The translations under genes and the position numbers were made by a program. Positions 2,467 to 49,183 of a stretch of DNA of 64,000 bases are shown piece by piece; position 1 is the first letter of the stretch, and every line of letters starts with the position of its first letter. Origin of the DNA: a bacterium (GTDB lineage Bacteria > Hydrothermota > Tepidihabitantia > Tepidihabitantales > Tepidihabitantaceae); assembly GCA_035505375.1 (NCBI GenBank), contig DATJQV010000075.1, positions 83,393-147,392 on the forward strand, read 5' to 3'. The notes below the pieces were generated by a model. That model was given only the letters and a program-made list of their open reading frames with translations. It was not told the DNA's origin and ran no database searches.

Positions 2467-3837
2467 ATGAGCCACGCGAGCCAAAGACAAAGCAGTAAGG
2501 ACAAAGGATCAGGCAAGCCGGCAATGACAAAGGGCGAGAACTGGGTCTTTCTACTTCGGACTTGCTTTGTCCTTTGTACCTTGTCCTTTGGACTTTCACC
2601 GGCGGCGCAGCCGCGGCCGGCCGCGCCGGTGGACACGTTCCCGCGGGCCGACGTAGTGGCGGCGGCAAAGCAGGCGCTCGATGCCGCAAACCGCAGCTTC
2701 GGGCACTGGCTGACGATGATTATCATCGCCGTGCTGTTCGCGGCCGTGCTCGTCGCGTGGCGCATCTGGGCGCTGGGCCGGCGCCTGGCGCGAGTCGATG
2801 AACTGCGGGCGGCGTGGGATACGCGGTTTGCCGGGACGACCGACGAAGTGCTGCGGCTCAAGCGAAAACTGGCCGATGACGAAAGCAGGGCCGAGCGGCT
2901 CGAGATCGACATCGCCTCCCTGCGTCCGGACGGGCCCGACGCCGTGAAAGACCAGGTGGCGGCGGTCCAGTCCGAACTGGCGGCGCTGCGCGAGCGGCTC
3001 GACCGGGCCGAGGAAAAGCTCGATGCGTTCGCCGACCATACCGTGGTGACGCAGCAGGAACGGGCCGCGGTCGAGGAACTGGTCAGGACCGCAGGCCGGT
3101 CGCAAGACGCGGTCGAAGGATTGGTCAAGAGCGCGGGTCAGTCGCAGGCCGCGATTGAGAAGATGGTCCGTACCGCAGGCCAGTCGGAGGCCGCGGCTGA
3201 GAAGATGGCCCGGACCGCGGGCCAGTCGCAGACCGCGGTTGAAAAGATGGCCCGGGCTGCGGGCCAGGCACAAGCCGCGGCCGAGGCCGCAGCCGACCGT
3301 GCCGAGGCCATTGTAAAGCGGGCCGCGGCGAGGGACTCATTGCGCGCCGCCGACGAGAAACTCGCCAAACGGGAGTACCCGGCGGCGGTACGGGCCTACT
3401 CGCTGTGCCTCGAAGCGCTCGAAGGCAGCGGAGTCGAAGACGCGGGACTCCGGTTCCACGCATTCCACAACCGCGCGCTCGCCAACCTCCGGCAGCGTGA
3501 GTTTGATGCGGTGCTGACCGATGCCGCCACGATCGAGGCTTTCGCTTCGGCCGATGCGGGCGACGTCGACGCCGCACGGGCGCAGGGCGCGGCCAAACTC
3601 CTCGCCGGCGTCGCCCGGCTCTGGCAGGGCAAAGTGCCGCAGGCGCTGCAGGACCTTACCGCGGCGGTCGAGCGCGACGAAGGCGCGCGCGCGGCTCTGC
3701 AGCAGGACGAAGACATCGCGGCATGGATGGAGGTCAACACCAAAAAGGCCGCTCCGGTGAAACGGTTCATCCGCGCCGCGGCCAAAGGCCCCAAAGTCCC
3801 AAAGTCCAAGCCCTCCAGCCCCGACTCCGAGTCCTGA
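2467..3837 (+). CDS. membrane-anchored coiled-coil protein with tandem ~17-aa repeats (VRTAGQSQAAxEKMxRTAGQS...)
   Basis: One hydrophobic TM segment (IIIAVLFAAVLVAWRIW). Coiled-coil and Ala/Gln-rich repeats. Directly follows the SurA-like genes. No recognisable catalytic motif. Confidence 0.5.
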   Translation: MSHASQRQSSKDKGSGKPAMTKGENWVFLLRTCFVLCTLSFGLSPAAQPRPAAPVDTFPRADVVAAAKQALDAANRSFGHWLTMIIIAVLFAAVLVAWRIWALGRRLARVDELRAAWDTRFAGTTDEVLRLKRKLADDESRAERLEIDIASLRPDGPDAVKDQVAAVQSELAALRERLDRAEEKLDAFADHTVVTQQERAAVEELVRTAGRSQDAVEGLVKSAGQSQAAIEKMVRTAGQSEAAAEKMARTAGQSQTAVEKMARAAGQAQAAAEAAADRAEAIVKRAAARDSLRAADEKLAKREYPAAVRAYSLCLEALEGSGVEDAGLRFHAFHNRALANLRQREFDAVLTDAATIEAFASADAGDVDAARAQGAAKLLAGVARLWQGKVPQALQDLTAAVERDEGARAALQQDEDIAAWMEVNTKKAAPVKRFIRAAAKGPKVPKSKPSSPDSES

Positions 3838-3952
3838 CCCCCGATCTCTAGTCTCCAGTCCCTCGCCCCTCGTCCCTAATCCCCACCCCCAAGTCCTTCT
3901 TCCCCAACTTCTCGCTTCTCGCATCCAGCTTCTCGCTTCTGACTTCGTCTGC

Positions 3953-4140
3953 CTGCATTCTGGTCTCTGAATTCAGCTCTATCCGATGCCGTATCCGTGT
4001 TCATCAGTGTTCATCCGTGGTTCCCTATTCGAACTTCCCCGGCCGGGCATTCTGAATTCTGGACTCTGGACTCTGAATTCATCTCTATCCGGTGCCGTAT
4101 CCGTGTTCATCTGTGTTCATCTGTGGTTGATTCCCTCGGG
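3953..4140. repeat. MITE-like dispersed repeat, two tandem units; left inverted copy flanking the R-M island
   Basis: Units begin and end with CAGAGACCAGAATTCAGA-type inverted termini. The core ATCCGTGTTCATCNGTGTTCATCCGTGGTT recurs at 17641-17800 (inverted), 60465-60500 and elsewhere. Confidence 0.6.
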
Positions 4141-5181
4141 ACCTTGGTACTTTTGGCTGTCGGCTTTTGGCTTCTGACCTTTGACTTGCGTCCGCCTCCG
4201 CCGTCCGCACTTCTCGCCTCTAGCTTCTCTCTTCTGCTTCACCTGACTGCCGAGAACCATGAAATTCCTTCATTGACTGAGGGATTTTCATGGTGTCGGA
4301 TGTCCGTGGTCCAGCACAGAACCAACGTCCACGTCATCCCCCTGTCCCAACTGGTCGGCGCCAAGTAGTACAACTCCTCGCCGGCTGACCGTCCGCCCGC
4401 CCGATAGCCCCGCTTCTGCTAACCGCTCTCCGCCATCCTTCTCCCACCGTCCGTACTTCTAGCTTCTCGCATCTAGCTTCTGACTTCCGCTGACCGCTCG
4501 CTCGTAACCCGTTACCCGCTCTCCGCTAACCGCCACTCGGCCCCTCGAATCCTGCACTGTCAGACAGGGGTCGCTGCGGCCAATCCTGGGAGCCTCGTCC
4601 TATCAGCTAGCTACCGGTGTCAGGCAATTCGGCGGTCGTGGTTCGGCCTTTGGCGTTTCTATGGCGTCAGGAATGTCTTATCGCGTCCCCGGAATTACCC
4701 CGAAGGACGATACCCGAGGCGTTCTTCCATCTGTCGCGCCAGCCACTCGTAGGCCTGCCGATGTCTCCCTCGAACCCGCCGAGCATCTGCCCGCAATACA
4801 CCGTCCTTCTGCAGCTTGGACCATGCGCCGACCGTTTGAACCGTCCACAGCGTCACTTCTTTCGCGTGCCGCGCGTCTTCCTGACGACGCCGACAGTCAG
4901 CCATCCTCATCGCGGACATCGTAATGGCCGCGACAATGAAGTCAAGGCGGCGGGCGTGTTAAATAGGCGGATCGATCTCTAGTCGCCCTGCGACCAATCT
5001 GCAATCGACGATCTTGGACCCAGAATGAGAGGGTTCACTTAAATGAACCGCGTGGGGCGGGCAGCAGGGATTGGGACTCGGAACCGGAGTCTATGGACCA
5101 AGGACTGATTGACTTGCGCCAAGGGAGCGTGGCGTGTCAAATGGGCGGGCGGACAGGGAATCCTGCGGGCGATCGGCTGAG

Positions 5182-5706
5182 TTACTTGCCTCGCCTCTTC
5201 GTCTTTGGCTTCGCGGACGACGTGGACGCGGCAGGCTTCGTCGGTTGCTCGCACAGCCGTTCTGCCCAGAACCTCAGTGTTTCGTCATCCTGGTCTTCCC
5301 AAGGTTGCCATTGCGGCCAACAGAAGGCGATGAAGGCGTCGACAAACGCCTTCTCGGCGGCATCAGAGTCTGTCTCGATGGTGTAGTCGTCGGCCTCTGC
5401 CTTGTCGTAGTACGTGAAGTAGTATGCCTTTGTCTCGGGGCCGAGTCCCTTTGCCACAAATGCCTTGCGCAACTCGGGCTCGCAATCCTCGTCTATTTCG
5501 GAGAGCGACTTCGGTCCTACGACGCCACCGGTGCCAACGTCAGACTCGTTATCTGCAACGCCTTCCGCACTCGCGAATTGGAACGCTGCCCCGAACATGG
5601 AGACACCTCCACTCTCGTACCCGCTCTTCTCCGTGGACTTCAGGAGCTTGGTCAACTCCTCGCGCGGAATCGACTCGACCCAGCTCTTTTGATCGTTGTC
5701 TGCCAT
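5182..5706 (-). CDS. acidic hypothetical protein (Asp/Glu-rich) adjacent to hsdR
   Basis: Strong CAGGAGG RBS upstream of ATG 5706. 174 aa, highly acidic, no recognisable domain. Confidence 0.5.
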   Translation of the reverse strand: MADNDQKSWVESIPREELTKLLKSTEKSGYESGGVSMFGAAFQFASAEGVADNESDVGTGGVVGPKSLSEIDEDCEPELRKAFVAKGLGPETKAYYFTYYDKAEADDYTIETDSDAAEKAFVDAFIAFCWPQWQPWEDQDDETLRFWAERLCEQPTKPAASTSSAKPKTKRRGK

Positions 5707-5858
5707 CTAGGCCTCCTGTAGTGACCTCTCATCGATGCGGCCCTTCGGAAGAAACCGAGTCATGGGCGGATTCTAGAGAGGGCTGGCGGGCGAGTCAAAT
5801 TCGAGGCCGCGCGTCAGGAATCGCCGGTTGCGTCGCCGGGGACTTGTCCGATGCCCAG

Positions 5859-8800
5859 CTAGGCTGCGTCCTCTTTGTAGGTCAGGCCGAAAACGGTGTC
5901 GGCCAGCCACTTGCGGAAGTCGTCGTTGTCGCTGTACTGCTTGAACAGCTCGGTGTGGTCGGACAGAAGCTCAACCAGCACCCGCTTCAGGGCTTTGTCG
6001 TGCTCGATGCGGGCGTTCTGCTTATCCGAGTTCTTCATTGCATTCTGATACGCCTTATCCGCGCTGACTTTGGCCGGAATCTCCTGTGCTATGACGGCCC
6101 GAATCTTGTCGGCGTCCTTCCAGTCGATGTTGCCGAAGAGGTCGTTGAATGCCTTGAGGATGTTACTCAACTTGTCCATCTCCGGTTCAGGCTTGTGTCC
6201 GCCCTGTTCGACTGGAACCGGGCCGACTTCGCCATCTTGGTCAGGCAGTGCAATGGTCCGCGTCGACTGCATCTCCGCCCTGTAGCTGTCCATATCAACG
6301 GCATCGAGGATACCCTTGGCCAGGTCTTCTTCCTCGGGCGCCGGCAGCTTCGGTATCAGGAAGTTCAGGAATATCGACAGCTTCTCCCACGAAGCATTGG
6401 TATAGGGTAGCACGGTTGCCAGAAATGCGTAGGTGCGGACGAAGCTTTTAGCTCCGCCCTTGAAGCCAACCTGCCCGTCCTCATCCAGGTTCAGCTTGTA
6501 CACGGCGACGCAGGCATCGAGAATCGGGTCGAGCCGGTCGCGCTCAGCCCCGCCAAGGTACAGCTTCACCAAGTCTTCAACCTGGCTCCAATCATAGACC
6601 TGAGCTGCATCCAGCTTTGCCTTCAGATCGTGCAGCTTGTTGGGATCGGTTTCCTCGCTCAGAATCGTCGTCCGGTAGTAGGGCGCGAAGTCGCGCTGGA
6701 TTCCCTCGGTGGTGTTTGTGAAGTCGAGCACAAACGTGTCGTACTTGCCGGGCATCGCCCGGTTCAAACGCGAGAGGGTCTGAACCGACTTCACGCCCGA
6801 CAGAATCTTGTCCACGTACATCGTGTGCAGCAGCGGCTCGTCATAGCCGGTCTGGAACTTCTCGGCGCAGACCAGTAACCGGTACGGGTCTTCGCGGAAC
6901 CGCTCGGCAATCTGACTTCCGGGGGATCCGTTCATGGATGTCTCGCTCAACTTCGCACCCTTGAATTCGTGCTCTCCCGAGAATGCGACCAGAGCCTTGA
7001 ACGGCAGTTTCATCTCGCTGATGTAGCCGGCTATTGCCTGGTAGTACTCGATCGCCCGCACGATGCTGCCCGTGACAACCATCCCCCTTGCCTGCCCGCT
7101 TATCTTGTGCCGTGAGTATACCTGGTTCAGGAAGTGGTCGACGATGATCTCGGCCTTCTTCTCGATGGCATGCTCGTGGGTTTCGATGTAGCGCCTGAGC
7201 TTCTTTGCGGCCTTCCTCACGTCGTACTCGGGGTCGTCCGGCACGGTCTTCACCAAACGGTAGTAGTTGTTCACCGGCGTGTAGCCCTTGAGCACGTCGA
7301 GGATGAAGCCCTCCTGTATCGCCTGCTTCATTGTGTAGCTGTGGAACGGCCGGTGCTTGACCTCCTCGCCCTCGGCGTATGGCACGCCAAACATCTCAAG
7401 AGTCTTATTCTTGGGCGTGGCCGTGAAGGCGAAGTAGCTGGCATTGGAGAGCATCCGGCGCGATTCGATGATGCGGTTGATGGTATCTTCGTACGTCTCC
7501 TCTTCCGGTTCCTCGCCCTCGGGCGAGAGCGCGATGTTCATCTTGGCCGAGGTCCGACCGCCCTGGCTGGAGTGGGCTTCATCAATGATGATGGCGAACC
7601 GGCGGTTGCGATGCTCGCTGCCGATTTCCTCCAACACGAACGGAAACTTCTGCACCGTGGTGATGATTATCTTCTTGCCCGATTCGATGAACTGGCGCAA
7701 CTGCTGCGAACCTTCGGTCACAGCGCCTACGATCGCAGACACCTGCGCGAACTGCCTTATCGTGTCGCGTATCTGCTTGTCGAGCAGACGGCGGTCAGTG
7801 ACCACGATGGTGGAGTCGAAAGCCGGCTTCCCCTCCCGCTCCAGGCCGACAAGTTGGTGGGCCAGCCAGGCAATCGAGTTCGACTTGCCCGAGCCCGCCG
7901 AATGCTGAACCAAGTAGCGCTTGCCGACGCTGTCCGCCAGAGCGGCCGCCAGCAGCTTGCGCACCACATCCAACTGGTGGTATCGCGGGAAGATCTGCTT
8001 GCGCTTCTTCCGGCCAGTCCTTTCATCTTTCTCCTCGACTACCTGTGCGTAGTTCTCAATGATGTTGGTCAGGCCCTCGCGCGTCAGCGCCTCTTCCCAG
8101 AGATAGGCAGTCTTAAGCCCGTTCGGGTTGGGCGGGTTGCCGGCTCCGTCGTTCCAGCCCTTGTTGAACGGGAGGAACCACGAGGCCTCGCCCTTCAGGT
8201 GCGTACACATCATCACCTGCTGGTCGTCCACCGCGAAGTGCACCAGACACCGGCTGAACTCAAACAGCAATTCATGCGGGTTCCGGTCGCGCTGGTACTG
8301 CACGACGGCATCGTCCACGGTCTGTTTGGTCAGGCTGTTCTTCAGCTCGAATGTCGCTATCGGCAGGCCATTGATGAACAGACATAGGTCGAGCGCGCGC
8401 TGCGTCTCGTCGCGGCTGTAGCGCAACTGGCGCGTGACGCTGAAGACATTGGACTCAAACAGCCTCACTGCCTCTCTGTTGCCCAGTGACGGAGTGCCGT
8501 AGAACAGGTTCACCGAAGCAGGACCGTGCTGGATGCCCTTGCGCAAGACATCGATGACGCCGCGCCTGGCGACCTCCCCGCGCAGCCGGTCAAGGAACTT
8601 CAGCCGGTTCGGGCCATCCTCAGCCAGACCCAGCGTCTCAACCGCCTTGGGCTGGGTTGCGTTCAGGAACTCCAGCAAGCGAACAAGGTCAACCGCGTGC
8701 TCGCGGTCATAGTGCGCAGGGTCGCCCTGCACATACCCAGTCCCGCCGATGGTGCCGACCTCGGTAGCAACCAGTTCCCCGCCGGCGTTATCCATGCGCC

Positions 8801-8861
8801 GGCCAGTCATGGCCGCGACAATCAGGCTCTCGAGGCCCTTTTCGCTGGTATCGGTAGGCAT
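5859..8861 (-). CDS. hsdR: type I restriction enzyme R subunit (HsdR), 1000 aa
   Basis: SF2 helicase motifs: Walker A SAGSGKSN and DEAH box IIIDEAHSSQ. The N-terminal nuclease region and the length are typical of HsdR. Confidence 0.9.
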   Translation of the reverse strand: MPTDTSEKGLESLIVAAMTGRRMDNAGGELVATEVGTIGGTGYVQGDPAHYDREHAVDLVRLLEFLNATQPKAVETLGLAEDGPNRLKFLDRLRGEVARRGVIDVLRKGIQHGPASVNLFYGTPSLGNREAVRLFESNVFSVTRQLRYSRDETQRALDLCLFINGLPIATFELKNSLTKQTVDDAVVQYQRDRNPHELLFEFSRCLVHFAVDDQQVMMCTHLKGEASWFLPFNKGWNDGAGNPPNPNGLKTAYLWEEALTREGLTNIIENYAQVVEEKDERTGRKKRKQIFPRYHQLDVVRKLLAAALADSVGKRYLVQHSAGSGKSNSIAWLAHQLVGLEREGKPAFDSTIVVTDRRLLDKQIRDTIRQFAQVSAIVGAVTEGSQQLRQFIESGKKIIITTVQKFPFVLEEIGSEHRNRRFAIIIDEAHSSQGGRTSAKMNIALSPEGEEPEEETYEDTINRIIESRRMLSNASYFAFTATPKNKTLEMFGVPYAEGEEVKHRPFHSYTMKQAIQEGFILDVLKGYTPVNNYYRLVKTVPDDPEYDVRKAAKKLRRYIETHEHAIEKKAEIIVDHFLNQVYSRHKISGQARGMVVTGSIVRAIEYYQAIAGYISEMKLPFKALVAFSGEHEFKGAKLSETSMNGSPGSQIAERFREDPYRLLVCAEKFQTGYDEPLLHTMYVDKILSGVKSVQTLSRLNRAMPGKYDTFVLDFTNTTEGIQRDFAPYYRTTILSEETDPNKLHDLKAKLDAAQVYDWSQVEDLVKLYLGGAERDRLDPILDACVAVYKLNLDEDGQVGFKGGAKSFVRTYAFLATVLPYTNASWEKLSIFLNFLIPKLPAPEEEDLAKGILDAVDMDSYRAEMQSTRTIALPDQDGEVGPVPVEQGGHKPEPEMDKLSNILKAFNDLFGNIDWKDADKIRAVIAQEIPAKVSADKAYQNAMKNSDKQNARIEHDKALKRVLVELLSDHTELFKQYSDNDDFRKWLADTVFGLTYKEDAA

Positions 8862-9161
8862 TAGTACCTCACCATCAAGTGACCATCAAGTAGAGCTAGT
8901 TCAAACCAATGCGTTGACTCATAGACACTCATGGCCATAGACATGCTTCTACAGACTGCCGCCGTCAGGATGAGTATCAAGTTCTGCGTCTGGCTTCGAC
9001 TAGAGTCGCCATCCACTAATCCGGCCTCGCTCAGTCGGGATTGCGTTACCGAATTGCATCCGAATTGCATCCAGAGCACTCGCGCTCGTGGATTGGCTAT
9101 ATGCCGTAACATCCTAAAGCAAGATGACTTACCGAATCGCGGCTGGGCCGCCGTACATGGG

Positions 9162-10819
9162 TCATTGCCGTCCGGATTGCTGTTCGATTGCATCTGGGTC
9201 CGGACCAATGAACCACCGTCCGGATCTGGTCTTGCCCCGGCAATGAACGCGGTTCTCGGCCTTCAACTCGCGGAGCAATGTCTGCATTTGGGCGCGCGAC
9301 AGGCTCGGGTCATTCAGCGCGCCGAGCAACTCGCGGAGCGGGCTGCCCTGCCCCTTGAAGGCCTCCAGATGCTGTAGTACCAGCTCCTTCAACCGCGCCC
9401 GGTCCAGTCCCCGACGCCTTGTGTAGCCGGCCTTATCACCCATTGCCGCGTAGAGCTTCCTTGCCAACAGGTACTTCATGCCCCGGGCGCGTCCTGTAGT
9501 CTCAACCAACCCCATCTCCCTGAGTCCGGCCAGGCGCGGTGCCAGGTTTGCGGGAACCACCTCGCCGCGGCGCAGAAGGTCGAGCACCAACAGATCCTCC
9601 GTCTGGAACGAACGCACACGTTCAGCGCCTACACGTTCCAGAAACCGTAGGAATCCCTCGTCCTGCACTGCACCCTGAAGCGTAAGCATGACCTGGTGCT
9701 CGTCGGTGCCGTTGAAGTCGGGCAGAGGCTTACTCTCGCGGATGGCAGTCTCGTACATAACGTTGGCCCTTGCCCAGAACGTTCGACCAGGCCGCACTTC
9801 GCGAGCACCTCGGCAATGCGTCGGTTGCGTGGACTCTGCCTGTAGAGGATGTTGTCGCGGGTGATGCCGCTGGGAAACCCGCCCGGGCTGACTACTTCCA
9901 GTCGCCGTGGGTATTGTCGCACAAACACCGACTCGGCCATTCGGTAGTCGCGATGACTCACGGCGTTTAGCAGTGCCTCGCGTACCACGCGCTCGCTGAA
10001 CGTCGGAATGTCCCAGATGAACAGCCCGTCTTGGAAGTGCTGGCTGTCGTTACGCAGGTTGATGGTCTTCCACAACTCGTCATCGAACGAGAAGAACCCC
10101 TGTCTGTATTCCTTCCTGTCCTGCGCAGGCCCGGTCGCATCGCTGGAACGATACTCGAAGACAATCTCCGCTTGAGCAAGGTCCCGCCCGAGGGCCATGC
10201 GAGTACCCAGCAGGATCAACGCCGCGTAGGTCACGCGTCCGTCCACCAGAAGCTCCGCGTCCGACAGAAGCTGCCCAGTGGACATGCCAAGCAGGTCGGC
10301 GCGTCCCGACTTCCGGTTCCACCGCTCGCGCAGTCGCTCGATGGCAACCTGGTCGAGCGCGTCCAGCGTCGCCCCGGGGCATATCTCTGCCGAGAAATCC
10401 GGCCCGGTCTCATCGAAGATGCGCCGCAGCATGTCTTCCGTCATGGCGGTCAGGCTATCACCTGAGCGCATCCAGTAGACACCGTCGTACCGCAACGGTA
10501 CGCCGATCGGCCGGGACGGTACATCGAACACGACCACCCGTCCGTGTGGGTGCTGAACCTCGACGCCGTCAATCCGCAGGTGCAGTATCTGAGTCAGGTC
10601 GCACCTGCGGTGCTCCAAGTCGCGGAAAGCATCAGTACCGACCACGCGGCGCGGCTTGAGGTTCGTAACACCAAGGATGAGCTTGCCGCCACGCTCGTTG
10701 GCCAGGGCGCAGCAGTACTTCCGCAGTTTCTCGATGTTGAAGTCGTGCTCGGCCTTCTTGAACTCAAGATGCTCGTCTTCCTCCGTCAGAAGCAACTCGT
10801 TCAACTGCTCAGCGGTCAT
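9162..10819 (-). pseudogene. RecG-like/Schlafen AlbA_2 (divergent AAA) + HATPase-type putative transcriptional regulator, split by a frameshift near 9765-9778
   Basis: ORF 9629-10819 encodes the AlbA_2 N-domain and ATPase-like region and runs out of frame after ...CGLVERSGQG. ORF 9162-9797 (GTG start) continues the same protein family (ANVMYETAIRESKPLPDFNGTD...) in another frame. The junction lies in a GGG/CCC run. Confidence 0.65.
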
Positions 10820-10915
10820 CTACTTCATCTCCGCATACAGCCGCCCGTTCGCAGTTCTCCGGATTCACCAACGTCTCCGCATCCTCGTGGAGGATGTCCC
10901 CGCTAGTGAACTCCA

Positions 10916-12367
10916 TCACTCCTCGCCCTCCGCATCATGGCTTGCGAGAGCTTCCTCGTTCGCCTCCTCCAATTCCTCCGGCGCTTCCGCCTCCGGTTCC
11001 TCAACTTCCTCCGTCTCATCCGGCAGATTCGTGGCGGCTTCGCGCACGTCCAGTTTGCCTGTCACCACGTCCGCCACAAGCCGAGTCCGGTACTCGCGTA
11101 GAAGGAGCACCTCAGCCTCCACTCGGGCTATTGCGGCATCCAGCGCAGCGGTCTGTGCCGCTATGTGCTCAAGCAAGCTCTTCTGTTCCGCAATCCCCGG
11201 CAGCAGAATCGGAAACGCGCGCAAGGTTGTGCTGTTTGTAGAGGCGAGATTCGTGGTCTGCTTAGCTGTCAGTTGGAAGTAGGCACGCCCATGCATGGAC
11301 ACCATGAGGCCTTCAAGGAACTCGGGAATCATGATGTCCTGTCTGCAACGGACGGCGAAAATGTGATTCTGGTGCAGGCAGTTCGGAATCTCGTCATGCC
11401 ACACACAACCGCGGCCGAGCTCGTCGATGTCTCCTCCCTCGGTCATCAGAACGTCTCCAGCACGCAGCGTCGCGCCGGATGCCTCTTTCACAGGGACGCT
11501 GATGTGCTTGATATGTCCGAGGTCAAGGCGGCCGGCTTGAACGTTAGCCACGCGGAGGTAGGGTCGTGACTCAATGGTGACTCCTTCGTAGCGCTTCCCA
11601 AGTGTTAGTCCGGTCTGCACGGTCGCCGCGTCTTTGAGCCGAGCAATTCTCCAATGCTCAGGTATGCCTCCCAGCCAAGCGACCCCGGACGGTTTGTACT
11701 TTGGATACGGCTTCCCAGTGCGGACGTCAATCTGACCGGTCACGGCCTGGTGGATAATGGCTTGCTTCTGCTCGTTCAGCCGCGCAATCAGCCTCTGCTT
11801 CGCCCGGATGTACTTCCGAATCCGCCGGTCAACGTGGTCAAGGTAGCGCACGATGGCGGATTGCTCCGCCAGAGGCGGTTTGCACGATACGATCATCCTG
11901 AAGTGCTCGGGCCTGAGGCTCCACATATCTGACGTGATGCCGTAGGACCAACGTTCCGCCTCCTTGGCGAAAACCGGAGTTCGCATGAGGTAGTGGAAAT
12001 AGCGCGGACTCGATCCCTCGCGCGGGCGCTGCACGACGTATGCAGGGCTAACGATTCCACGTAGGTCGGACACTCCGACCGCACCTTGCCATGCCCGCAT
12101 CTTGTTGTAAGCGATGTCTCCGGGACGAACGAGCTTGTAGGCGGACTTGTCCAGATTCGAGCCGTCCTTCTTCGAGCTATCTGCCAGCAATGCTTGCTGA
12201 CGAATCACGCCCCTCGTGATAGTCACGGACAGCATCGGTTCGTCTGGATGGTCGCGCTCTTTGACTTCGGCGAAGAGGGCGCGGTTAGGCAACACATCCC
12301 AATGCTCCGGCACGTCTCCCAGCCACGGCACGCCGGAAGGCTTGTAGGATGGGTAGGGTGTTTTCAA
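10916..12367 (-). CDS. hsdS: type I restriction-modification specificity subunit (HsdS), two target-recognition domains
   Basis: Duplicated YPSYKPSGVPWLG / YPKYKPSGVAWLG motifs with conserved central and C-terminal coiled-coil spacers typical of HsdS. Confidence 0.85.
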   Translation of the reverse strand: MKTPYPSYKPSGVPWLGDVPEHWDVLPNRALFAEVKERDHPDEPMLSVTITRGVIRQQALLADSSKKDGSNLDKSAYKLVRPGDIAYNKMRAWQGAVGVSDLRGIVSPAYVVQRPREGSSPRYFHYLMRTPVFAKEAERWSYGITSDMWSLRPEHFRMIVSCKPPLAEQSAIVRYLDHVDRRIRKYIRAKQRLIARLNEQKQAIIHQAVTGQIDVRTGKPYPKYKPSGVAWLGGIPEHWRIARLKDAATVQTGLTLGKRYEGVTIESRPYLRVANVQAGRLDLGHIKHISVPVKEASGATLRAGDVLMTEGGDIDELGRGCVWHDEIPNCLHQNHIFAVRCRQDIMIPEFLEGLMVSMHGRAYFQLTAKQTTNLASTNSTTLRAFPILLPGIAEQKSLLEHIAAQTAALDAAIARVEAEVLLLREYRTRLVADVVTGKLDVREAATNLPDETEEVEEPEAEAPEELEEANEEALASHDAEGEE

Positions 12368-12373
12368 GCCTGT

Positions 12374-13312
12374 TTATTTCGCTATCGGAACGCCATACTG
12401 AAGAAGCAGGCTTTCAAGGTGCCGACCATCGATGAGCCTGACCATTTTCATCTCGGGGCGGTTGGCCTCCTTGATGGCCCCCGCGCTGAACTCCCCAGAC
12501 GTAACAACCATGCACTCGGCCGGGCCTGCGGCCCCTCTGATCTTCTGTATATCTGGAGCCTGCACTTTGGCCTTCCAGTGCTTCACCTGCACTTTGACGG
12601 CGACCGTGCCGCCCGAATCCAGCGGACGGTGTCCCTCGACATCTACTCCGCGGTCGTGCGTCGCTGGGGTCACGACGACGCGATCGTAGCCAACTGCCGA
12701 AAGGAGATCTCCCACCAGTTGTTCAAGTTGCGTTGGCGACAGGCTGCGCAATCCGGCCGGAGCCATTGGTGTGGCAGGAGCGCCTGCCTGTGAAGCTGGG
12801 CTGGGCGTGGACATGCCGACCAAACCCACTGCTCCCCCGGCAAGACGCACGAACCGGGGTTTCTCGCCGCGCGCGACGCGGTCTCGGGTGTCCTGATAGA
12901 CGCGCCCAAGAACCATGTTCTCAAACTTCCCGCTCCGCGAGGAGAACAGCTTCTGGCTGGTGATCTCTGCAGCCAACTCCTTCGCCGTCATAGGATGTCC
13001 AACGGACCGCAACACATGTTCTACGGCACCGAGTATCTTCATCGGCCCGCGTGGCACGGTCGTGACCGCCTCCCTGTCGGCAGGCTGCTCTGACGCCAGC
13101 CTGAACAAGCCGCCTCGTGAGCCGTGCCGAAAGCGCGAGGCGGAACCATTGCTCTTCGTGTCCGCGCATAGCCTCGACCCCACGACATGCCCGAAGTCCT
13201 TGGCGGTTGGCAGAAAGAGCTTCTGCGACACAATCCTCTTGGCGATCTCTCGGTAGTGCAGCTCGACTCGCGCTTGGGACAGCACTTCGTGGGCCGCGTC
13301 TAGAATCTCCAT
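12374..13312 (-). CDS. mrr: Mrr-like type IV restriction endonuclease with two N-terminal winged-helix (HARE-HTH / Mrr_N) domains and a C-terminal Mrr_cat PD-(D/E)xK domain
   Basis: Two repeats of a ~90-aa wHTH module. The C-terminal region has the D...(E/D)xK signature (DRGVDVEG...VKVQVKHW). Embedded between hsdS and hsdM, a known arrangement. Confidence 0.65.
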   Translation of the reverse strand: MEILDAAHEVLSQARVELHYREIAKRIVSQKLFLPTAKDFGHVVGSRLCADTKSNGSASRFRHGSRGGLFRLASEQPADREAVTTVPRGPMKILGAVEHVLRSVGHPMTAKELAAEITSQKLFSSRSGKFENMVLGRVYQDTRDRVARGEKPRFVRLAGGAVGLVGMSTPSPASQAGAPATPMAPAGLRSLSPTQLEQLVGDLLSAVGYDRVVVTPATHDRGVDVEGHRPLDSGGTVAVKVQVKHWKAKVQAPDIQKIRGAAGPAECMVVTSGEFSAGAIKEANRPEMKMVRLIDGRHLESLLLQYGVPIAK

Positions 13313-13429
13313 TGCGTTGCCTCCTTCGTCATCTCCGCAATCTCTTCCTCCGCTTTCGGGCTTCGTCTAGCTCATGGGGCGGCGGGCCAGCGTACATTGA
13401 GACCGTGCCTGCAAAGAACCGGCGCGGCG

Positions 13430-15556
13430 TCACTCCAACGCCTCCTTGAGCAATCCTTCGGTCTCCTTCTCCAGTGCCGCGATGTCGGCCTTGATCTCTT
13501 CAAGAGTCCGAAGCGGCTGGGGCTTGTAGAAGTAGCGGTTGAAGCTGATTTCGTAGCCAATCTTGGTCTTGGATTCGTCTATCCAGGCGTCCTTGGCATA
13601 AGGCAGGACCTGGCGTTGGATGAAGGCTTCGATGCCACCGTCTTCAAGCAAAGGCACTTGCTCGGTGTCGCGTAGCTCCGTATCCGGTTCGTACTCGACG
13701 GCATACTGCCTGCCGACAACCATGGCCTCGAACAGACCGCGCAGAGGATCCACCTTCGTCTTGAAGAGCGGGTACGCCTTCTTGACGACAGGCACCCCGT
13801 TCTCATCGCGCTCAGCCAGGTTGTTCTTGAGCAGGTTCTCTCGCTTCACGGGGAAGTAGAAATCTTCCTTCAGTGCTGCCTTGCGTGCTTCTGTCAGGAA
13901 GGCATTGAAGTCCATGTGCGGCCCTGAGCCGAGTGATTCGGCCAGCTTGTCGGCAAAGGCAGGCAGATCCTCGTCCTTGGCCTTGGCGCAGGCAAACTTG
14001 AGCCGCGCTCGGCTGGCGTGGTTGAACTCGACCTTGAGCCTCAGCGGACGCTCGACCGTGACCTTCCAGTAGCCGAAGGCCTCGTTCGGAAAGACCTTGG
14101 ACTGCTCGGTCTCTTTGAACTCAAGGAAGGTGTCGGCGATCCGCCTGATGTCAGCATCCGAGAGCCGGCAGTTCTTCTTGCCGAGGTTCTTTCGCAGAGG
14201 CTCGAACCACTGGGTCGCATCGATAAGCTGAACCTTGCCTTTGCGATGCTCGGGTTTGCGGTTGGAGAGGAGCCAGATGTAAGTGGCGATACCGGTGTTG
14301 TAGAAGATGTTGAGTGGGAGCGCGATTATCGCTTCCAGCCAGTCGTTCTCGATTATCCAACGCCGGATGTTACTCTCGCCCTGTCCCGCGTCGCCGGTGA
14401 AGAGCGACGAACCGTTATGGACCTCGGCGATGCGGCTGCCGAGCCTGGTGCCGACCTTCATCTTGCTGAGCATATTGGCAAGGAACATCATCTGGCCATC
14501 GCTGGAACGGGTCACGAGCGAATACTCCGGGTCGCCTGCGTGAGTGATGATGAATCGCGGGTCCTTGATGCTGTCCTTGCCGCCCATCTTCTCCATGTCG
14601 TTCTTCCAGCTCTTGCCGTAGGGCGGGTTGGAGAGCATGAAATCGAACTTCAGGCTGGCAAACCCGTCATGGGAAAGCGTGGACCCAAAGACGAAGTTGT
14701 CGGCCTCTTCACCCTCGCCCTTGAGCACCAGGTCTGCCTTGCTGATGGCATAGGTCTCGGGTTCGACTTCCTGACCGTAGAGGTGAATCGAGGGGTCCTT
14801 GCCGTGGTCCTTGGCCATATCGAGCAGACGTTGCTCGGACACGGTTAGCATCCCACCGGTCCCGCACGCGCCATCGTACACGAGGTACGCGCCGGACACG
14901 ACCTTGTCCGCCACCGGCTTAAGCACAAGGTCGGCCATGAGCGTTACAATGTCGCGGGGCGTGAAGTGCTCGCCTGCTTCTTCGTTGTTCTCTTCGTTGA
15001 ACCGGCGGATGAGTTCCTCGAAGATGGTGCCCATGCCGTGGTTGTCGAGTCCGGGCAGGCGCTCAGAGCCGTCACTGTTCAGCGCAGGCTTGGGGCTGAG
15101 GTTGATGGACGGGTCGAGGAACTTCTCAATCAGGCCGCCGAGGATGTCGGCTTCCACCAGAGTCGGCACCTGGTTGCGGAACTTGAACTTCTCGATTATC
15201 TCCTGGACGTTAGGCGAGAAGCCGTCGAGGTACGCCTCGAAGTCGGCCTTGAGTGTCTGCGCCCGGCCACGGGAGCGCAAGTCGCGAAGCATGAACGCAG
15301 AGGCGTTGTAGAACGACTGCCCGGCTGCCTGTCGCAGCGGCGCTTCCTGGCTGGAGATCTTCGACTTGTCGAGGCGATCCTTCATGTCGAGCACGGCCTT
15401 CTTGGTTGGCTCCAGCACGGCATCCAGCCGCCTGATGACCGTCATCGGCAGGATGACGTCGCGGTACTTGCCGCGTTTGTAATAGTCGCGGAGCACGTCA
15501 TCGGCGATGCCCCAGATGAAGTTGGCAATCCAGTCCAGTTGTGTCGGTTCCATCAC
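13430..15556 (-). CDS. hsdM: type I restriction-modification DNA methyltransferase subunit (HsdM, N6-adenine)
   Basis: HsdM N-terminal domain (MMEPTQLDWIANFIWGIADDVLRD...). SAM-binding region and catalytic NPPYG motif (LSNPPYGKSW). Confidence 0.9.
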   Translation of the reverse strand: MMEPTQLDWIANFIWGIADDVLRDYYKRGKYRDVILPMTVIRRLDAVLEPTKKAVLDMKDRLDKSKISSQEAPLRQAAGQSFYNASAFMLRDLRSRGRAQTLKADFEAYLDGFSPNVQEIIEKFKFRNQVPTLVEADILGGLIEKFLDPSINLSPKPALNSDGSERLPGLDNHGMGTIFEELIRRFNEENNEEAGEHFTPRDIVTLMADLVLKPVADKVVSGAYLVYDGACGTGGMLTVSEQRLLDMAKDHGKDPSIHLYGQEVEPETYAISKADLVLKGEGEEADNFVFGSTLSHDGFASLKFDFMLSNPPYGKSWKNDMEKMGGKDSIKDPRFIITHAGDPEYSLVTRSSDGQMMFLANMLSKMKVGTRLGSRIAEVHNGSSLFTGDAGQGESNIRRWIIENDWLEAIIALPLNIFYNTGIATYIWLLSNRKPEHRKGKVQLIDATQWFEPLRKNLGKKNCRLSDADIRRIADTFLEFKETEQSKVFPNEAFGYWKVTVERPLRLKVEFNHASRARLKFACAKAKDEDLPAFADKLAESLGSGPHMDFNAFLTEARKAALKEDFYFPVKRENLLKNNLAERDENGVPVVKKAYPLFKTKVDPLRGLFEAMVVGRQYAVEYEPDTELRDTEQVPLLEDGGIEAFIQRQVLPYAKDAWIDESKTKIGYEISFNRYFYKPQPLRTLEEIKADIAALEKETEGLLKEALE

Positions 15557-15715
15557 GAACCCTCTTTCTTACCGATAGGCCAGTCAATCACGCGGAGGTT
15601 ATAGCCGGAAAGCTCGCCGCAGTCAGGCGCGTGCCGTAGAACCTAGCAGTCGTCAGTGCCGCCGGGAGCGGCAGGGCTGTCGCTCTGTGGCAGATTCGTC
15701 GATTAGGCGTCCTCG

Positions 15716-16168
15716 CTAGCGACGTACCACCGGGAGGACAAGCGGCGGAAGGCCCATGCGCACGACAGTGCTTTGTACGTACTCGCGGAAGTATGGCCAA
15801 GTGTTCAGGGGGAGGTTGTTCGTGCAGAAGATCTGGAAGTAGTCCTTGGTCATCGGCTTTGCGACTCGGTATACGACCTCGAATGTGCAGCTGATTCGCA
15901 GTAGAGGTATCTTGGGTTCATCCTTGTACGCCGCCATGAAAACGCAGGTCTGAATAACCTTGCATGTTGCCTCGCCCTCCATCTGGAATGAGACTTTGTC
16001 TTCGATCCCCAGGTCCATCTCACGTTTGAAGTCGACTTTGTCTACGAGAAGCTCTGCGGATAGGGCCCGAGCCGCGATGTTCAGCAGATCGAGCCCCCGA
16101 ATGAACTCGGCATACTCCCTGGGGCTTACTTTCGGGCGTGCGGGCCGCTTGACCGCGGTTGCACTCAT
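15716..16168 (-). CDS. hypothetical protein, translationally coupled downstream of hicB
   Basis: Its start ATG overlaps the hicB stop by 4 nt (ATGA), with an AGGAAGG RBS. 150 aa with no recognisable family. Confidence 0.45.
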   Translation of the reverse strand: MSATAVKRPARPKVSPREYAEFIRGLDLLNIAARALSAELLVDKVDFKREMDLGIEDKVSFQMEGEATCKVIQTCVFMAAYKDEPKIPLLRISCTFEVVYRVAKPMTKDYFQIFCTNNLPLNTWPYFREYVQSTVVRMGLPPLVLPVVRR

Positions 16169-16725
16169 ATTGCCGCCTTCCTGTGGAAACTTATGTTGCC
16201 GGGGTCAGGGAGTGCGAACTCGCTGCCCCCGCATGATACACCGGCCAAACCCCTGAGCTGCTTGCGGGCGTTCCATGGATCACGAAGCACTATCTCTTCG
16301 AGGTCATCTCTCAAACGGTCAGCGGTGGACAGAGTTCTGGACAGACGAACGTCAAGCGCGTGCGTCACTACGCCCTGAGCGAGTACGACAGCCACAAACT
16401 GGTTTAGACTCGTTCCTTGCTCCTCTGCCTGTCTCGCAAGCTGGCGATGCAGAGCGGCCGGCAGGCGAACGACGAACTTGCCCGAGAATTCCCTTGCTTC
16501 CTCGGGCAGTGGTATCTCGATGTTTGACTGGTAGGCTTCCTCCAGCCAGAGTTCTCGCGCTTCCTTGATGTTGGCCATTGCCTCCTCTAGTGTTTCGCCT
16601 TGAGTCATACAGCCGGGCAGGTCCGGCACTGACACGAAGTACCCGCCTTCCTCCTGCTCATGCACCTGCACGGGATACTTCAGGTTCACGTAGTAGGCCA
16701 AGTCCTTCTCATTCCTGCGGTTCAT
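16165..16725 (-). CDS. hicB: HicB-family antitoxin with C-terminal extension
   Basis: N-terminal HicB/UPF0150 domain (YPVQVHEQEEGGYFVSVPDLPGCMTQGETLEEAMANIKEA). This is followed by an RHH-like DNA-binding segment (GKFVVRLPAALHRQLARQAEEQGTSLNQFV). Confidence 0.7.
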   Translation of the reverse strand: MNRRNEKDLAYYVNLKYPVQVHEQEEGGYFVSVPDLPGCMTQGETLEEAMANIKEARELWLEEAYQSNIEIPLPEEAREFSGKFVVRLPAALHRQLARQAEEQGTSLNQFVAVVLAQGVVTHALDVRLSRTLSTADRLRDDLEEIVLRDPWNARKQLRGLAGVSCGGSEFALPDPGNISFHRKAAI

Positions 16726-16957
16726 CTGTTGCCTCCAGGTCCAGCGTCGTGATAATGTCCTTTAAGTACGATTTCTTGTAGGATTTGCTGTGTGTGGCCA
16801 AGACGAGCCGGCGACCATTATCGCCCCAAATCTCGTGACTGCCTTTTGTTCTTCGCAGAGTCCATCCAAAGTGTTTGAGTATCGCTCGTACGTCTTGGCA
16901 TGCCATCTCGGCAGGCCTCGAAAGAAGTCGAGCGACGAGCTTCTTGACGCTGGACAA
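16709..16957 (-). CDS. hicA: HicA-family mRNA interferase toxin
   Basis: 82 aa with the conserved HicA core ...RTKGSHEIW... Overlaps hicB by 17 nt. Confidence 0.8.
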   Translation of the reverse strand: MSSVKKLVARLLSRPAEMACQDVRAILKHFGWTLRRTKGSHEIWGDNGRRLVLATHSKSYKKSYLKDIITTLDLEATDEPQE

Positions 16958-17289
16958 CGTCCCATGATACTACCCTTAGTATTAGATGTCAACATCGGAG
17001 TTGTGGATTCGTGTGGGCCCGCCATGAAATGGCCGGCTAGCCAGGTCCGCTGGTTTGGACACCTTCGCTGATCACGTGGAGTGTACCAGAGTGGTGTAGT
17101 GCCTTAGCCCGCAAGTTGAGCGGAAGCATTGGGCCTGGGGGCTAGCCTCTTCGGAACTCCAGGCAGGACATCTTGCCCAATGCTATGCGCCTCCGCCGGC
17201 CGCTGCGGAAGCACGATGGTCGACGTTGGCGGCTCTCGGTCACCCCCCCCTGCCCGAAGCCTGCAACCTGCGTTTGAGGTTTGCATTTC

Positions 17290-17530
17290 GCAGTTATCCA
17301 CGCGCTTCCGGTACAACAGCAATTATTAGCAAAAGAACCTGTTGCTGCTGTTGGGATGTGGATAATGTGGATAACTCACAATTTCTACCATTAGTAGTAT
17401 CAACCACTGTACACTACCACTAGTGGTTGATTATCCACATAGTTATCCACATCCTGTCCACATTCATCCACCATTTGGCCATTCCGGCCAGATACCACCT
17501 ATTGTATCCACCGAGTTATCCACACCACTA
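17290..17530. promoter_or_regulatory. cluster of DnaA boxes in a locally AT-rich segment (candidate replication origin or DnaA-titration/regulatory locus)
   Basis: Five perfect consensus boxes: TGTGGATAA x2 (17357-17365, 17366-17374) and TTATCCACA x3 (17431-17439, 17443-17451, 17516-17524). At least four 1-2-mismatch boxes (17294, 17454, 17464, 17504). The surrounding ~200 bp is markedly AT-rich relative to the window. A 9-bp inverted repeat TCAACCACT...AGTGGTTGA lies at 17399-17430. Confidence 0.6.
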
Positions 17531-17640
17531 CAGATAGGTGTTGACATTGGAGTCCTGTCCGGCATTGTTGGTTAATGACCGATGAGAAATCCGTTTCAGA
17601 CACCGGGCTATTCCCCGGGCAGTCCCGGGGCCTGCCCCCT

Positions 17641-17800
17641 AGCGAAGGCATGGGAGAAATCAGAATTCAGAGACCAGAAACCAGAATTCAGAATGCCCGG
17701 CCGGGGAAGTTCGAATAGGAAACCACGGATGGACACAGATGAACACGGATACGGCATCGGATAGAGCTGAATTCAGAGACCAGAAACCAGAATTCAGATA
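17641..17800. repeat. MITE-like dispersed repeat, inverted copy (right flank of island)
   Basis: The reverse complement matches 3953-4070 at ~95% over ~115 bp, including both CAGAGACCAGAATTCAGA termini. Confidence 0.6.
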
Positions 17801-17826
17801 CGCTGACGAAGAGCCAGGATGGCGGT

Positions 17827-18429
17827 TCAGCGCCTGCGTCGGCGCCGATCGCGAGCGACGAAGTCCGAGCCTGAGCCGGTGTGGCCGGGTTTGTCGTCGT
17901 CGGTGATGAATCCGATACGTTTCTTCCTTGGCGCAGGCGGCAGCATGAGCTGTTTGATAGTGGCAAAGACCACCTGGAAGTTCCGGTCGTGCGTGGCCAG
18001 CTTGCGTTCAAGTTCGGCGAGCTTGATGGCGAGCTGTCGCTGGTCGGCCAGCATGCGACGCATTCGTATGAACGCCCTCACCACAAAGACGCTGACATCG
18101 ACCGCCCGTTTGGATCGCAGGACGCTCGCGAGCATGACAGTTCCATGTTCCGTGAATGCGTAGGGGCGACTTGACGAGTGCCTGAGCGCCACCAACCGGT
18201 CGCATTTTGCGACCAGTTCATCCTTCTCATCGAGTGTCAACTCGAACATGAAACCTTCGGGGAATCGTTCCCGGTTGCGCCGGACTTGTTCCTTCAGTCG
18301 GCGGGTCGTGACGCCGTAGACTTCGGCCAGGTCGACGTCCAGCATGACACGTTCGCCACGTATCTCCAGAATGGCACTGTCTATTCGCTCGGCGGGGATG
18401 AGGTATCCGGAGTCTTTGGGCGCGGTCAC
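17827..18429 (-). CDS. ORF6N (KilA-N-like) DNA-binding domain protein
   Basis: The N-terminal ~110 aa matches the ORF6N/antirepressor-like fold (LEIRGERVMLDVDLAEVYGVTTRRLKEQVRRNRERFPEGFMFELT). Typical of phage/mobile-element cargo. Confidence 0.65.
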   Translation of the reverse strand: MTAPKDSGYLIPAERIDSAILEIRGERVMLDVDLAEVYGVTTRRLKEQVRRNRERFPEGFMFELTLDEKDELVAKCDRLVALRHSSSRPYAFTEHGTVMLASVLRSKRAVDVSVFVVRAFIRMRRMLADQRQLAIKLAELERKLATHDRNFQVVFATIKQLMLPPAPRKKRIGFITDDDKPGHTGSGSDFVARDRRRRRR

Positions 18430-18570
18430 GGGCCTAGGATACCGGCGAAGGGTGCTGAGTCAAGGCGCGGCGCGGGAATTCCCGGCGACGCAATAGGCGA
18501 TTCCCGCAGAAGGGGGTCCAGGATTCAAGGATCCGAGGAATCTAGTGGCGGGTGGCGGGCACCGGATGGT

Positions 18571-18636
18571 TCAGAAGTCAGAAACCAAAACGCGAGACGG
18601 GGAACAATCCAGAATCCAGAAACCAGAATTCAGAGT
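18571..18636. repeat. partial copy of MITE-like repeat family (terminal module)
   Basis: CAGAAGTCAGAAACC...CCAGAATCCAGAAACCAGAATTCAGAG, near-identical to segments at 20861-20935 and 21056-21100. Confidence 0.5.
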
Positions 18637-18717
18637 TGCCCAGGAAAGGAATCGAGAGATCGAGGGAGAGGGTGCGCGGCTTGCCATCGGAGAGAATCTG
18701 GCTATCATCTGGCCAGA

Positions 18718-19029
18718 ATGAAGTACCGGGTCGCATTCGCGCCCGAAGCCCTCGATGATTACCGCCGCCTCTCGGCCCGAACCAGGGCCGAAGTCAGGGA
18801 TGCCATCAACCGGCACCTGCTGCACCAGCCGACCCGGTTGAGCCGAAGCAGTATCAAGCGGCTGCGTGGGACCCGGAAGCCGCAATACCGCCTGCGCGTC
18901 GGGGACGTGCGCGTCTTCTACGACGTGCGAGAGGATGAGGTGGTGGTGCTGGCTGTTGTTGAGAAATCGCGCGCTGCGGAATGGCTTGAGAAGACTGGAG
19001 AATTCGATGAAGAGAGTAGCGCTGGCTGA
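18718..19029 (+). CDS. RelE/ParE-family type II toxin
   Basis: 103 aa: MKYRVAFAPEALDDYRRL...YRLRVGDVRVFYDVREDEVVVLAVVEKS. Typical RelE/ParE fold signature. Confidence 0.75.
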   Translation: MKYRVAFAPEALDDYRRLSARTRAEVRDAINRHLLHQPTRLSRSSIKRLRGTRKPQYRLRVGDVRVFYDVREDEVVVLAVVEKSRAAEWLEKTGEFDEESSAG

Positions 19030-19330: not shown

Positions 19331-19570
19331 CAGCCGGGCGCTGGCCGCGAGACACTGTCCTTCGTACGTCGTCCATCGTTCTTCGTCCTGAGTCTACTGT
19401 CCACAGTCCATAGTCCGTCCGTCTCCTCGTCCTTCGTCTGAGCTCTCTGCGTCATCTGCGCAATCTGCGGTTAGTCTTCTCCGGCCTGGCGGTTAATCCA
19501 TTTTCGATTGACGATTGCCGATTTCAGATTGCCGGACCGGTATCCGAAGCGGAGAGCGGTCGGCGGACTG

Positions 19571-19700: not shown

Positions 19701-19701
19701 G

Positions 19702-49162: not shown

Positions 49163-49183
49163 ACAGTAGACAGGATACAGGTC

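Follow-up and report, generated by a model that had tools for sequence, protein, structure and literature searches.

An inverted repeat pair inside a hotspot defence island probably mediates inversion of a 13.6-kb restriction-modification and toxin-antitoxin-chaperone block

Introduction

Known restriction-modification (R-M) invertons flip hsdS half-genes or promoters, usually beside a dedicated invertase. Here, we analysed a 64,000-nt stretch of a bacterial metagenome-assembled genome (MAG; contig DATJQV010000075.1 of assembly GCA_035505375.1), in which two inverted repeat arms enclose a 13.6-kb block that holds a type I R-M operon, a predicted toxin-antitoxin-chaperone (TAC) operon and a cluster of DnaA boxes. 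This whole stretch is called the window, and all position numbers refer to it.

Three further groups of described elements are close to parts of this locus. REP/REPIN elements and the STRR heptamer repeats of cyanobacteria are short sequences that recur many times in intergenic DNA (Bertels & Rainey 2011; Mazel et al. 1990). At a larger scale, the core defence hotspots (cDHS) of Pseudomonas lie between conserved core genes, and a proposed route for their transfer is recombination via the conserved flanking DNA (PMC10250203); a repertoire of defence islands has likewise been reported for E. coli (PMC10121019). Finally, HicAB-type TAC systems have been described (PMC5105189), and the PD-T4-9/CmdTAC system, with its CmdC/PD-T4-9 component, is a TAC shown by experiment to be anti-phage (PMC9519451).

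Results

The block between the arms is probably present in both orientations

The arms, and the longest tract that they share without mismatch, are the following.

3953–4128, plus strand: left repeat arm, H – x – P – spacer – H – x – P′, 1.7 tandem units (H, heptad block; P, decamer block)
17647–17798, minus strand: right repeat arm, H – x – P – spacer – H in the minus-strand sense
3958–4005, no strand assigned: 48-nt tract TTCTGGTCTCTGAATTCAGCTCTATCCGATGCCGTATCCGTGTTCATC, identical in both arms (arm alignment and mismatch lists)

A repeat search of the window paired 3953–4096 with 17647–17790 (144 nt, 90% complementary, 13,550 nt apart) and, as a second inverted match, 4051–4128 with 17721–17798 (78 nt, 91%). 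With BLAST, 3958–4080 aligned to 17785–17663 at 95.1% over 123 nt, with perfect-identity stretches of 48 and 39 nt inside this repeat, and none of 100 shuffles gave any match, which places the pair far above chance. The initial annotation of this DNA had indeed described a near-identical inverted pair (about 95%) around the block. Both arms contain the same 32-nt core, TTCGAACTTCCCCGGCCGGGCATTCTGAATTC, which occurs at no other place in the window.

Exact matches to the Mrr, HicB, ORF6N, SurA and acidic-protein sequences led to other assemblies of the same population. The ENA contig k141_1844497 (L134/L138/L141, 24 kb) is 100% identical to the window from 23312 down to 11496 and therefore supports the right junction of the window, hereafter orientation A. 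The JGI contig Ga0335069_10031624 (L136, 7,156 bp), an independent contig from the same population at strain level, displayed a different arrangement. Its first 876 nt correspond to window positions 3082–3957, that is, the end of a coiled-coil protein gene and the left spacer, and from nucleotide 877 on it is 100% identical to the reverse complement of the window from 17785 down to 11506, carrying the right-type arm, the DnaA boxes, hicA, hicB, the chaperone gene, hsdM, mrr and part of hsdS. This is the exact left junction predicted from a single crossover within 3958–4005 that inverts the segment, and downstream of this tract L136 has the right-arm variant at each of the six discriminating positions. 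A private single-nucleotide polymorphism (SNP) at 3116 sets L136 apart from the window as well, and it therefore represents a distinct haplotype. The Logan contig L143 (SRR8879134), which ends inside the arm, likewise connects the left flank with right-type variants, T4006 and C4011; it adds little weight, because its assembly k-mer (k = 31) is shorter than the 48-nt tract. The assemblies thus show orientation A in the window and L134 and, with the reciprocal junction not recovered, point to orientation B in L136 and, in part, L143. Separately, ENA and JGI contigs break within the coiled-coil gene between 3038 and 3122 (L145 ends at 3038, L136 starts at 3082 and L144 ends at 3122), and more than one haplotype exists there.

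These observations suggest that the repeats probably mediate inversion of the 13.6-kb block, a possibility that the initial annotation had not considered. Recombination between the arms, with the exchange inside the 48-nt identical tract, would flip the R-M genes, the TAC genes and the DnaA boxes together, and the alternative junction would then be a real inversion and not a mis-assembly. No integrase, invertase or resolvase domain was found in the island open reading frames (ORFs); general homologous recombination would be the simplest mechanism, because no recombinase is encoded nearby. As the flank genes converge on the block, a flip would change which one is transcribed in the same direction as hic and hsd. 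The reading of an “invertible promoter” found no support: the promoter scan gave no sigma-70-like site inside the arms, and hicA has a promoter-like site of its own.

Like the known invertons and programmed type I hsdS inversions (PMC9881135; PMC7672463), the locus, itself a type I R-M system, has inverted repeats around a segment that is apparently present in both orientations in one population. Here, by contrast, a whole 13.6-kb operon set would be inverted, with no recombinase nearby and with neither a coding sequence nor an obvious promoter rewired.

Several points weigh against inversion. The inverted orientation comes from one 7-kb contig of a fragmented assembly and one k = 31 contig that ends in the repeat. 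The reciprocal junction, which would join the ORF6N flank to the DUF3841/hsdR end, was not recovered by the ORF6N and acidic-protein look-ups, in which contigs stop at 4613 or inside the arms, and a low-coverage mis-join across the 48-nt identical tract could also have produced the junction of L136. The inverted pair might then be a neutral accident of repeat-rich DNA around a block that never inverts, with L136 an assembly chimera across the repeat. The missing reciprocal junction fits such a chimera, as do the abundance of H and P modules in intergenic DNA, the fragmentation of the JGI and Logan assemblies at this locus (with breaks at 3038–3122, in the arms and in hsdS) and the length of the 48-nt tract, which exceeds small assembly k-mers. 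Yet a genome purely in orientation A would require coverage gaps in both arms, at complementary positions, where a true orientation B requires none; two assemblers, possibly working on different data, paired the left flank with right-type variants; and L136 is the exact single-crossover product, with a SNP of its own. We therefore consider a chimera the less likely origin of L136, while giving it real weight, and retain inversion between the arms as the probable explanation.

The block lies in a larger defence island at a variably occupied site

Comparison with relatives defined the variable region and its conserved flanks.

211–1086 and 1114–2457: PPIase/SurA genes before the coiled-coil gene; the order SurA (x3)–P0001 is kept in all relatives
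2467–3837, plus strand: coiled-coil protein gene (P0001, locus tag VMH22_11975), left conserved flank, identified by synteny with relatives
3838–21625 (right end approximate), no strand assigned: whole variable region, or defence island, about 17.8 kb, defined against the empty site in relatives
21671–23188, plus strand: nitroreductase/FlgD_ig gene, right conserved flank, 75% identical to the orthologue in L124

Three lineages (a JGI contig with P0008; L124; L125/L126) have an empty site, in which the gap between the coiled-coil and nitroreductase genes measures only 105–151 bp. At the same site, L121–L123 carry a ParE toxin-antitoxin (TA) system and an unrelated type I R-M system together with Abi_C, YaaC and DUF1828 genes, the HsdR being 25% identical to that of the window, and L127 carries YagJ, SNF2-fragment, YhcG and AlbA_2 genes. 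L121 and L127 have flanks that are 94–96% identical and unrelated cargo. The same flanking core genes therefore enclose variable cargo or none, with three empty lineages and two other fillings. Coiled-coil homologues are at most about 60% identical, and the neighbouring SurA is 73–77% identical to those of relatives. Orthology of the right flank is clear from the 75% identity of the nitroreductase gene and from its promoter-like upstream region (about 21630–21670), which retains a TTGAC..TTTAA..ATG block in relatives.

The gene order of the window, set against these empty sites, therefore places the acquired region at approximately 3838–21625, with four genes outside the right arm included.

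17827–18345, minus strand: ORF6N-domain protein, PADLOC candidate defence gene PDC-S05
18718–19029, plus strand: ParE-family toxin (Pfam and gene calls)
19007–19330, plus strand: Phd/YefM antitoxin (Pfam and gene calls)
19702–20709, plus strand: Fic-domain protein, SoFic (Pfam Fic 2e-20; PADLOC SoFic 4e-57)

The ORF6N, relE/phd and fic genes announced outside the right repeat were found at 17827–20709, the toxin belonging to the ParE family. Defence systems are clustered across the island: type I R-M, Mrr (type IV-like/PDC-S02), TAC (PD-T4-9_C), PDC-S05 (ORF6N), SoFic and ParE/Phd. The composition deviates as well: GC is 0.594 in 3838–21625 and 0.637 elsewhere (the lowest 13.5-kb interval elsewhere reaches 0.617), and GC at third codon positions (GC3) is lower as well. 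Together with the empty site, this composition supports the view that the region is horizontally acquired defence DNA. The claim of an acquired defence island bounded by the repeats thus holds for the acquisition and fails for the bounds, which lie at 3838 and about 21625. Likewise, the empty site sought in relatives exists in three lineages and lacks 17.8 kb, not the repeat-bounded block.

The 17.8-kb defence island thus occupies a lineage-specific hotspot between the coiled-coil gene, after the SurA cluster, and the nitroreductase/FlgD_ig gene. As in cDHS and the E. coli islands, the site is fixed between conserved genes, is empty or variously filled, and bears no integrase scars. It differs from cDHS in its poorly sampled, uncultivated lineage, for which one distant homologue comes from a candidate division WOR-3 MAG, in the lack of a tRNA or tmRNA at the border (none was found in the window scan, so there is no such integration site) and in the heptad and decamer arrays that set the cassettes apart. 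By analogy alone with the route proposed for cDHS, recombination between the conserved flanks might bring DNA into the hotspot and turn over the island.

Separately, L121 and L122 are 99.97% identical from position 6080 on and wholly different upstream. Their breakpoint (about 6080–6088) falls in a module-rich spacer that immediately precedes the SurA cluster, so that repeats of this kind are the site of a second rearrangement between strains.

The arms are composites of modules common in intergenic DNA

The H block consists of CAGAnnn heptads (right-arm sense) and the P block of a roughly 10-nt periodic ATCCGTGTTC that ends in GTGGTT. Each arm reads H, a short linker (AGCTCTATCCGATG in the left arm), P, a spacer with the palindrome CCCGGCCGGG and a second H block, after which the left arm runs on with a second linker and P unit; TTCGAACTTCCCCGGCCGGGC is a core of the composite arm.

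Both modules are dispersed. With up to two mismatches, CTGGTCTCTGAATTC occurs 12 times in the window, as opposed to 0.12 expected. Runs of at least three CAGAnnn heptads were found at eight sites of the window, six in the island (4048, 17661, 17774, 18610, 20902 and 21060) and two in native intergenic DNA (32696 and 60412), and a further P block lies at 60465–60494. H blocks are also present in the relatives L121 and L124, the P module occurs in relatives too, and the relatives' loci hold the same kinds of module arrays. The spacers to the right of the arm share more repeats with one another (18552–18637 with 20844–20929; 19413–19472 with 21323–21389; 19556–19594 with 21172–21210).

20771–21389, no strand assigned: repeat-rich spacer with further H blocks and with copies of the modules that are present at 18552–18643 and 19413–19677 too

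More generally, the intergenic DNA of this lineage is made of short periodic “word” arrays, such as CAGAnnn heptads, ATCCGTGTTC and ATCTGCG decamers, CTTGACTAATA, GTCGAGGA and CTTCTCGC/CTTCTGAC. Such arrays lie at 3838–4560, 17647–17800, 18500–18680, 19410–19680, 20760–21400, 32690–32735 and 60400–60500 of the window and at 11300–12700 of L121, and recur from site to site and in relatives.

Beyond the lineage, a scan was made with the P-type 17-mer CCGTATCCGTGTTCATC over one genome per species; chance coding matches are mixed in. Among the matches listed, intergenic copies of the 17-mer came from MAGs with the labels Opitutaceae, Verrucomicrobiota, Planctomycetota, Gemmatimonadaceae, Binatia and proteobacteria, and CCGTATCCGTGTTCATC with its decamer-periodic continuation often formed inverted doublets, in a REPIN-like manner. 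Example loci are L009 (2930–2978), L031, L023, L070, L079 and L093, and the 17-mer is also present in the Brocadiaceae MAG loci L001, L030, L042, L073, L084, L085 and L117. It matched nothing in the literature or in Rfam; a literature search with the repeat sequence returned unrelated primers only, and the Rfam scan of the window, arms included, gave no known RNA family.

By contrast with its dispersed H and P sub-modules, the full composite with its unique spacer is common to just two sites in the data searched. A scan for the arm-specific spacer revealed no third non-coding copy in the window, JGI metagenomes or viral contigs, returning unrelated coding matches only. The H and P sub-modules are generic, and the arms look like paralogous copies of a composite built from the ordinary modular intergenic repeats of the lineage, rather than like transposon ends. 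That the full arm was seen only twice in these data (64 kb, JGI metagenomes and viral contigs) tempers this reading, as a multi-copy family and a transposase could lie elsewhere in the MAG. The modules are, like REP/REPIN elements, short, highly repeated and intergenic, and P modules often form inverted doublets in other genomes; like STRR, the H blocks are tandem heptamers. Unlike REP/REPIN, they come with no RAYT gene that we saw, the P copies of the window are not local doublets, and the same 17-mer is found in several phyla.

In the model of the initial annotation, the arms are miniature inverted-repeat transposable elements (MITEs), and the 13.6-kb block is mobilised like a composite transposon by a transposase supplied in trans. 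The locus does resemble composite transposons and MITE pairs in having two inverted short non-coding repeats around a cargo: the inverted pair is genuine (123–144 nt, with a unique shared core), the composition of the block is unlike the rest of the window, and the arms bracket self-contained cargo. However, several hallmarks of such elements were not found at the locus. Next to the repeats, neither of the two possible kinds of target-site duplication was found. No direct duplication of at least 6 nt is flush with the outer ends, the longest direct match being an offset 5-nt CTGAC, and no inverted duplicate of at least 6 nt, as expected from the geometry of intramolecular replicative transposition, is present. 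The only longer match, an inverted 7-mer CTTCGTC just outside both arms, looks like a degraded extension of the repeat homology and not a target-site duplication. Terminal inverted repeats are absent: both ends of an arm carry H blocks in direct orientation, and only the palindromic CTGAATTCAG core is self-complementary. Pfam matched no transposase, recombinase, integrase or invertase in the ORFs scanned across the 64 kb, and no other copy of the composite was detected in JGI metagenomes or viral contigs. The empty sites lack 3838 to about 21625, or 17.8 kb, and not exactly the repeat-bounded segment (13.8 kb). Finally, the nearest non-self homologue of the Mrr protein encoded in the block is only 47% identical, and there is therefore no sign that the block is spreading now; the Mrr homologue search gave no near-identical copy of the block elsewhere. 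The transposon mechanism is thus unsupported, and we regard it as very improbable.

The arrays might alternatively be recombination sites for a recombinase encoded elsewhere, which would flip the block and shuffle the cassettes of the hotspot in an integron-like manner. Some features hint at such a cassette system: the island holds six of the eight H blocks of the window, placed at cassette junctions, the TA and R-M cassettes of L121 are separated by an H block, the crossover tract contains the palindromic CTGAATTCAG, and the L121/L122 breakpoint is in a module-rich spacer. We nevertheless hold it to be improbable, and favour homologous recombination between ordinary repeats.

The block encodes a type I R-M system and a predicted TAC operon

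The gene content of the block, listed below, agrees in its profile matches with what had been announced, namely hsdM, mrr, hsdS, a recG-like gene (here AlbA_2/HATPase_c_4), hsdR, an acidic protein and hicAB with a coupled third ORF.

4695–4919, minus strand: N-terminal DUF3841 fragment (Pfam DUF3841 E = 7e-6, profile positions 1–54 of 178 only)
5182–5706, minus strand: acidic 174-aa protein, downstream of hsdR (34 D+E, 21 K+R)
5859–8861, minus strand: hsdR, type I restriction subunit (Pfam HSDR_N, SWI2_SNF2, ResIII, T1R_D3; PADLOC REase_I 3e-45)
9162–9689, minus strand: out-of-frame 175-aa ORF overlapping the AlbA_2 gene by about 60 nt (gene calls on L135)
9629–10819, minus strand: AlbA_2 (Schlafen-type)/HATPase_c_4 gene, 396 aa (the Pfam name contains “recG C-terminal”)
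10916–12367, minus strand: hsdS, specificity subunit (PADLOC Specificity_I 1e-99)
12374–13312, minus strand: Mrr-type restriction endonuclease (HARE-HTH and Mrr_cat), located within the R-M operon (matches to PDC-S02 and to type IV models)
13430–15556, minus strand: hsdM, type I methyltransferase (Pfam N6_Mtase, HsdM_N; PADLOC MTase_I 9e-253)
15716–16168, minus strand: SecB-like third ORF, translationally overlapping hicB (PADLOC PD-T4-9_C 6e-7; Pfam SecB 0.007; PDB 5mtw, SecB-like Rv1957, 0.085)
16165–16725, minus strand: hicB (HicB 1.7e-16)
16709–16957, minus strand: hicA (HicA_toxin 7e-10)
16964–16992, minus strand: sigma-70-like promoter TTGACA-17-TATCAT just upstream of hicA (11 of 12 positions, consensus match only)

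The overlapping hicA, hicB and SecB-like genes form a predicted TAC operon. Gene order and overlap are as in HicAB-type TAC systems and CmdTAC. The Pfam domains of HicB stop near residue 122 of 186, and the C-terminal tail of about 60 aa beyond them sits where the chaperone-addiction segment would be in TAC systems. In contrast to those systems, the SecB similarity of the third ORF is weak, with marginal Pfam and PDB matches.

Among the R-M genes, the AlbA_2 gene and the 175-aa ORF may be a single frameshifted gene. Neither this ORF nor a 115-aa ORF received an assignment from NCBIfam, PDB or Pfam, and the acidic protein matched nothing in Pfam, NCBIfam, PADLOC or PDB. The DUF3841 fragment, located between the left arm and the acidic-protein gene, is likely a remnant of earlier cargo, judging by its partial profile match. 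Three independent contigs (L134, L136 and L137) stop inside hsdS, at 11496, 11506 and 11950 respectively, and L135 passes through; these ends suggest strain-level variation in the second target-recognition half.

An origin-like element lies just inside the right arm

17290–17560, no strand assigned: origin-like element; the 270 nt with the highest AT content in the window, with six DnaA boxes (five perfect, one near-perfect)

The DnaA-box cluster reported in the initial annotation was confirmed, with five perfect TTATCCACA boxes at 17357–17524 and one box with a single mismatch at 17294, that is, six in 230 bp. They are 100–350 bp inside the right arm and 300–550 bp upstream of the hicA promoter-like site. 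The GC content of these 270 nt is 0.43–0.45, as compared with 0.63, and is the lowest in the whole window, so that a DnaA-box cluster lies beside an AT-rich region, as in an origin. The scanned window ORFs include no dnaA, dnaN or rep gene, the cluster is absent from the relatives' loci, and a blastn search of the region against the plasmids of PLSDB gave no match.

A cumulative GC-skew minimum at about 14–17 kb, by the DnaA boxes, was considered as an oriC signal and rejected, as GC3 skew has the same sign on plus- and minus-strand native genes. The left flank shows no skew switch, and the sign of GC3 skew is the same on both sides; the V shape is a product of gene orientation and island composition. 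A chromosomal oriC appears unlikely, because the site is empty in relatives. The element appears origin-like and part of the acquired block, and could be a remnant of a plasmid-type origin or a DnaA-binding regulatory or titration site.

This raises the question of whether the block as a whole is the remnant of an integrated plasmid or chromid-type replicon, with the DnaA-box element as its origin, the R-M and TAC systems as its addiction modules and the arms as sites of a site-specific recombinase encoded elsewhere. R-M and TA modules are typical plasmid-stabilising cargo, the five perfect boxes occupy the lowest-GC stretch just inside the right arm, and every variant position of the arms moves together with the block, which is what a fixed site of crossover predicts. 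One homologous crossover within the longest tract of identity accounts for the last observation equally well, however, and the block has no rep, par, integrase or invertase gene and no similarity to PLSDB plasmids. A replicon remnant is accordingly a quite unlikely reading, and the arm pattern remains compatible with simple inversion between the repeats.

Other repeat-containing genes in the window

Several genes outside the island also carry repeats. Five tandem paralogous genes (750–945 aa) at 38241–51922 form long direct-repeat families with 2.4–2.8-kb spacing; the two paralogues scanned (38241–41078 and 41265–43517) have C-terminal FlgD_ig domains, with a T9SS sorting domain in addition in one of them. 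The minus-strand genes at 53321–54724 and 56297–58942 contain internal repeats with a period of 156 nt, one with a DUF5122 beta-propeller match and one with FlgD_ig/CHU_C sorting domains. A 1026-aa ORF without Pfam match, at 34983–38063, is situated in a region with extreme AT skew (+0.5 to +0.64) and 63–108-nt periodic repeats.

Discussion

Taken together, our results make it fairly likely that the locus combines a hotspot island with an invertible block between ordinary modular repeats. The locus is a further case of known kinds, a defence hotspot and, probably, an inversion mediated by inverted repeats. Cargo between two inverted repeats is not by itself a transposon, and the analysis corrects this tempting reading.

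The site is a fast-turnover defence hotspot in an almost unsampled bacterial lineage, where flanks that are 94–96% identical enclose completely different cargo. The DnaA-box/AT-rich element inside the defence island and the cross-phylum ATCCGTGTTC repeat raise two separate questions. If the inversion is true, a complete type I R-M operon, a TAC operon and an origin-like element would change orientation together with no recombinase encoded locally. Inversions associated with R-M genes are not usually of this size, and one may ask whether the direction of the block with respect to the converging flank genes tunes defence-gene expression.

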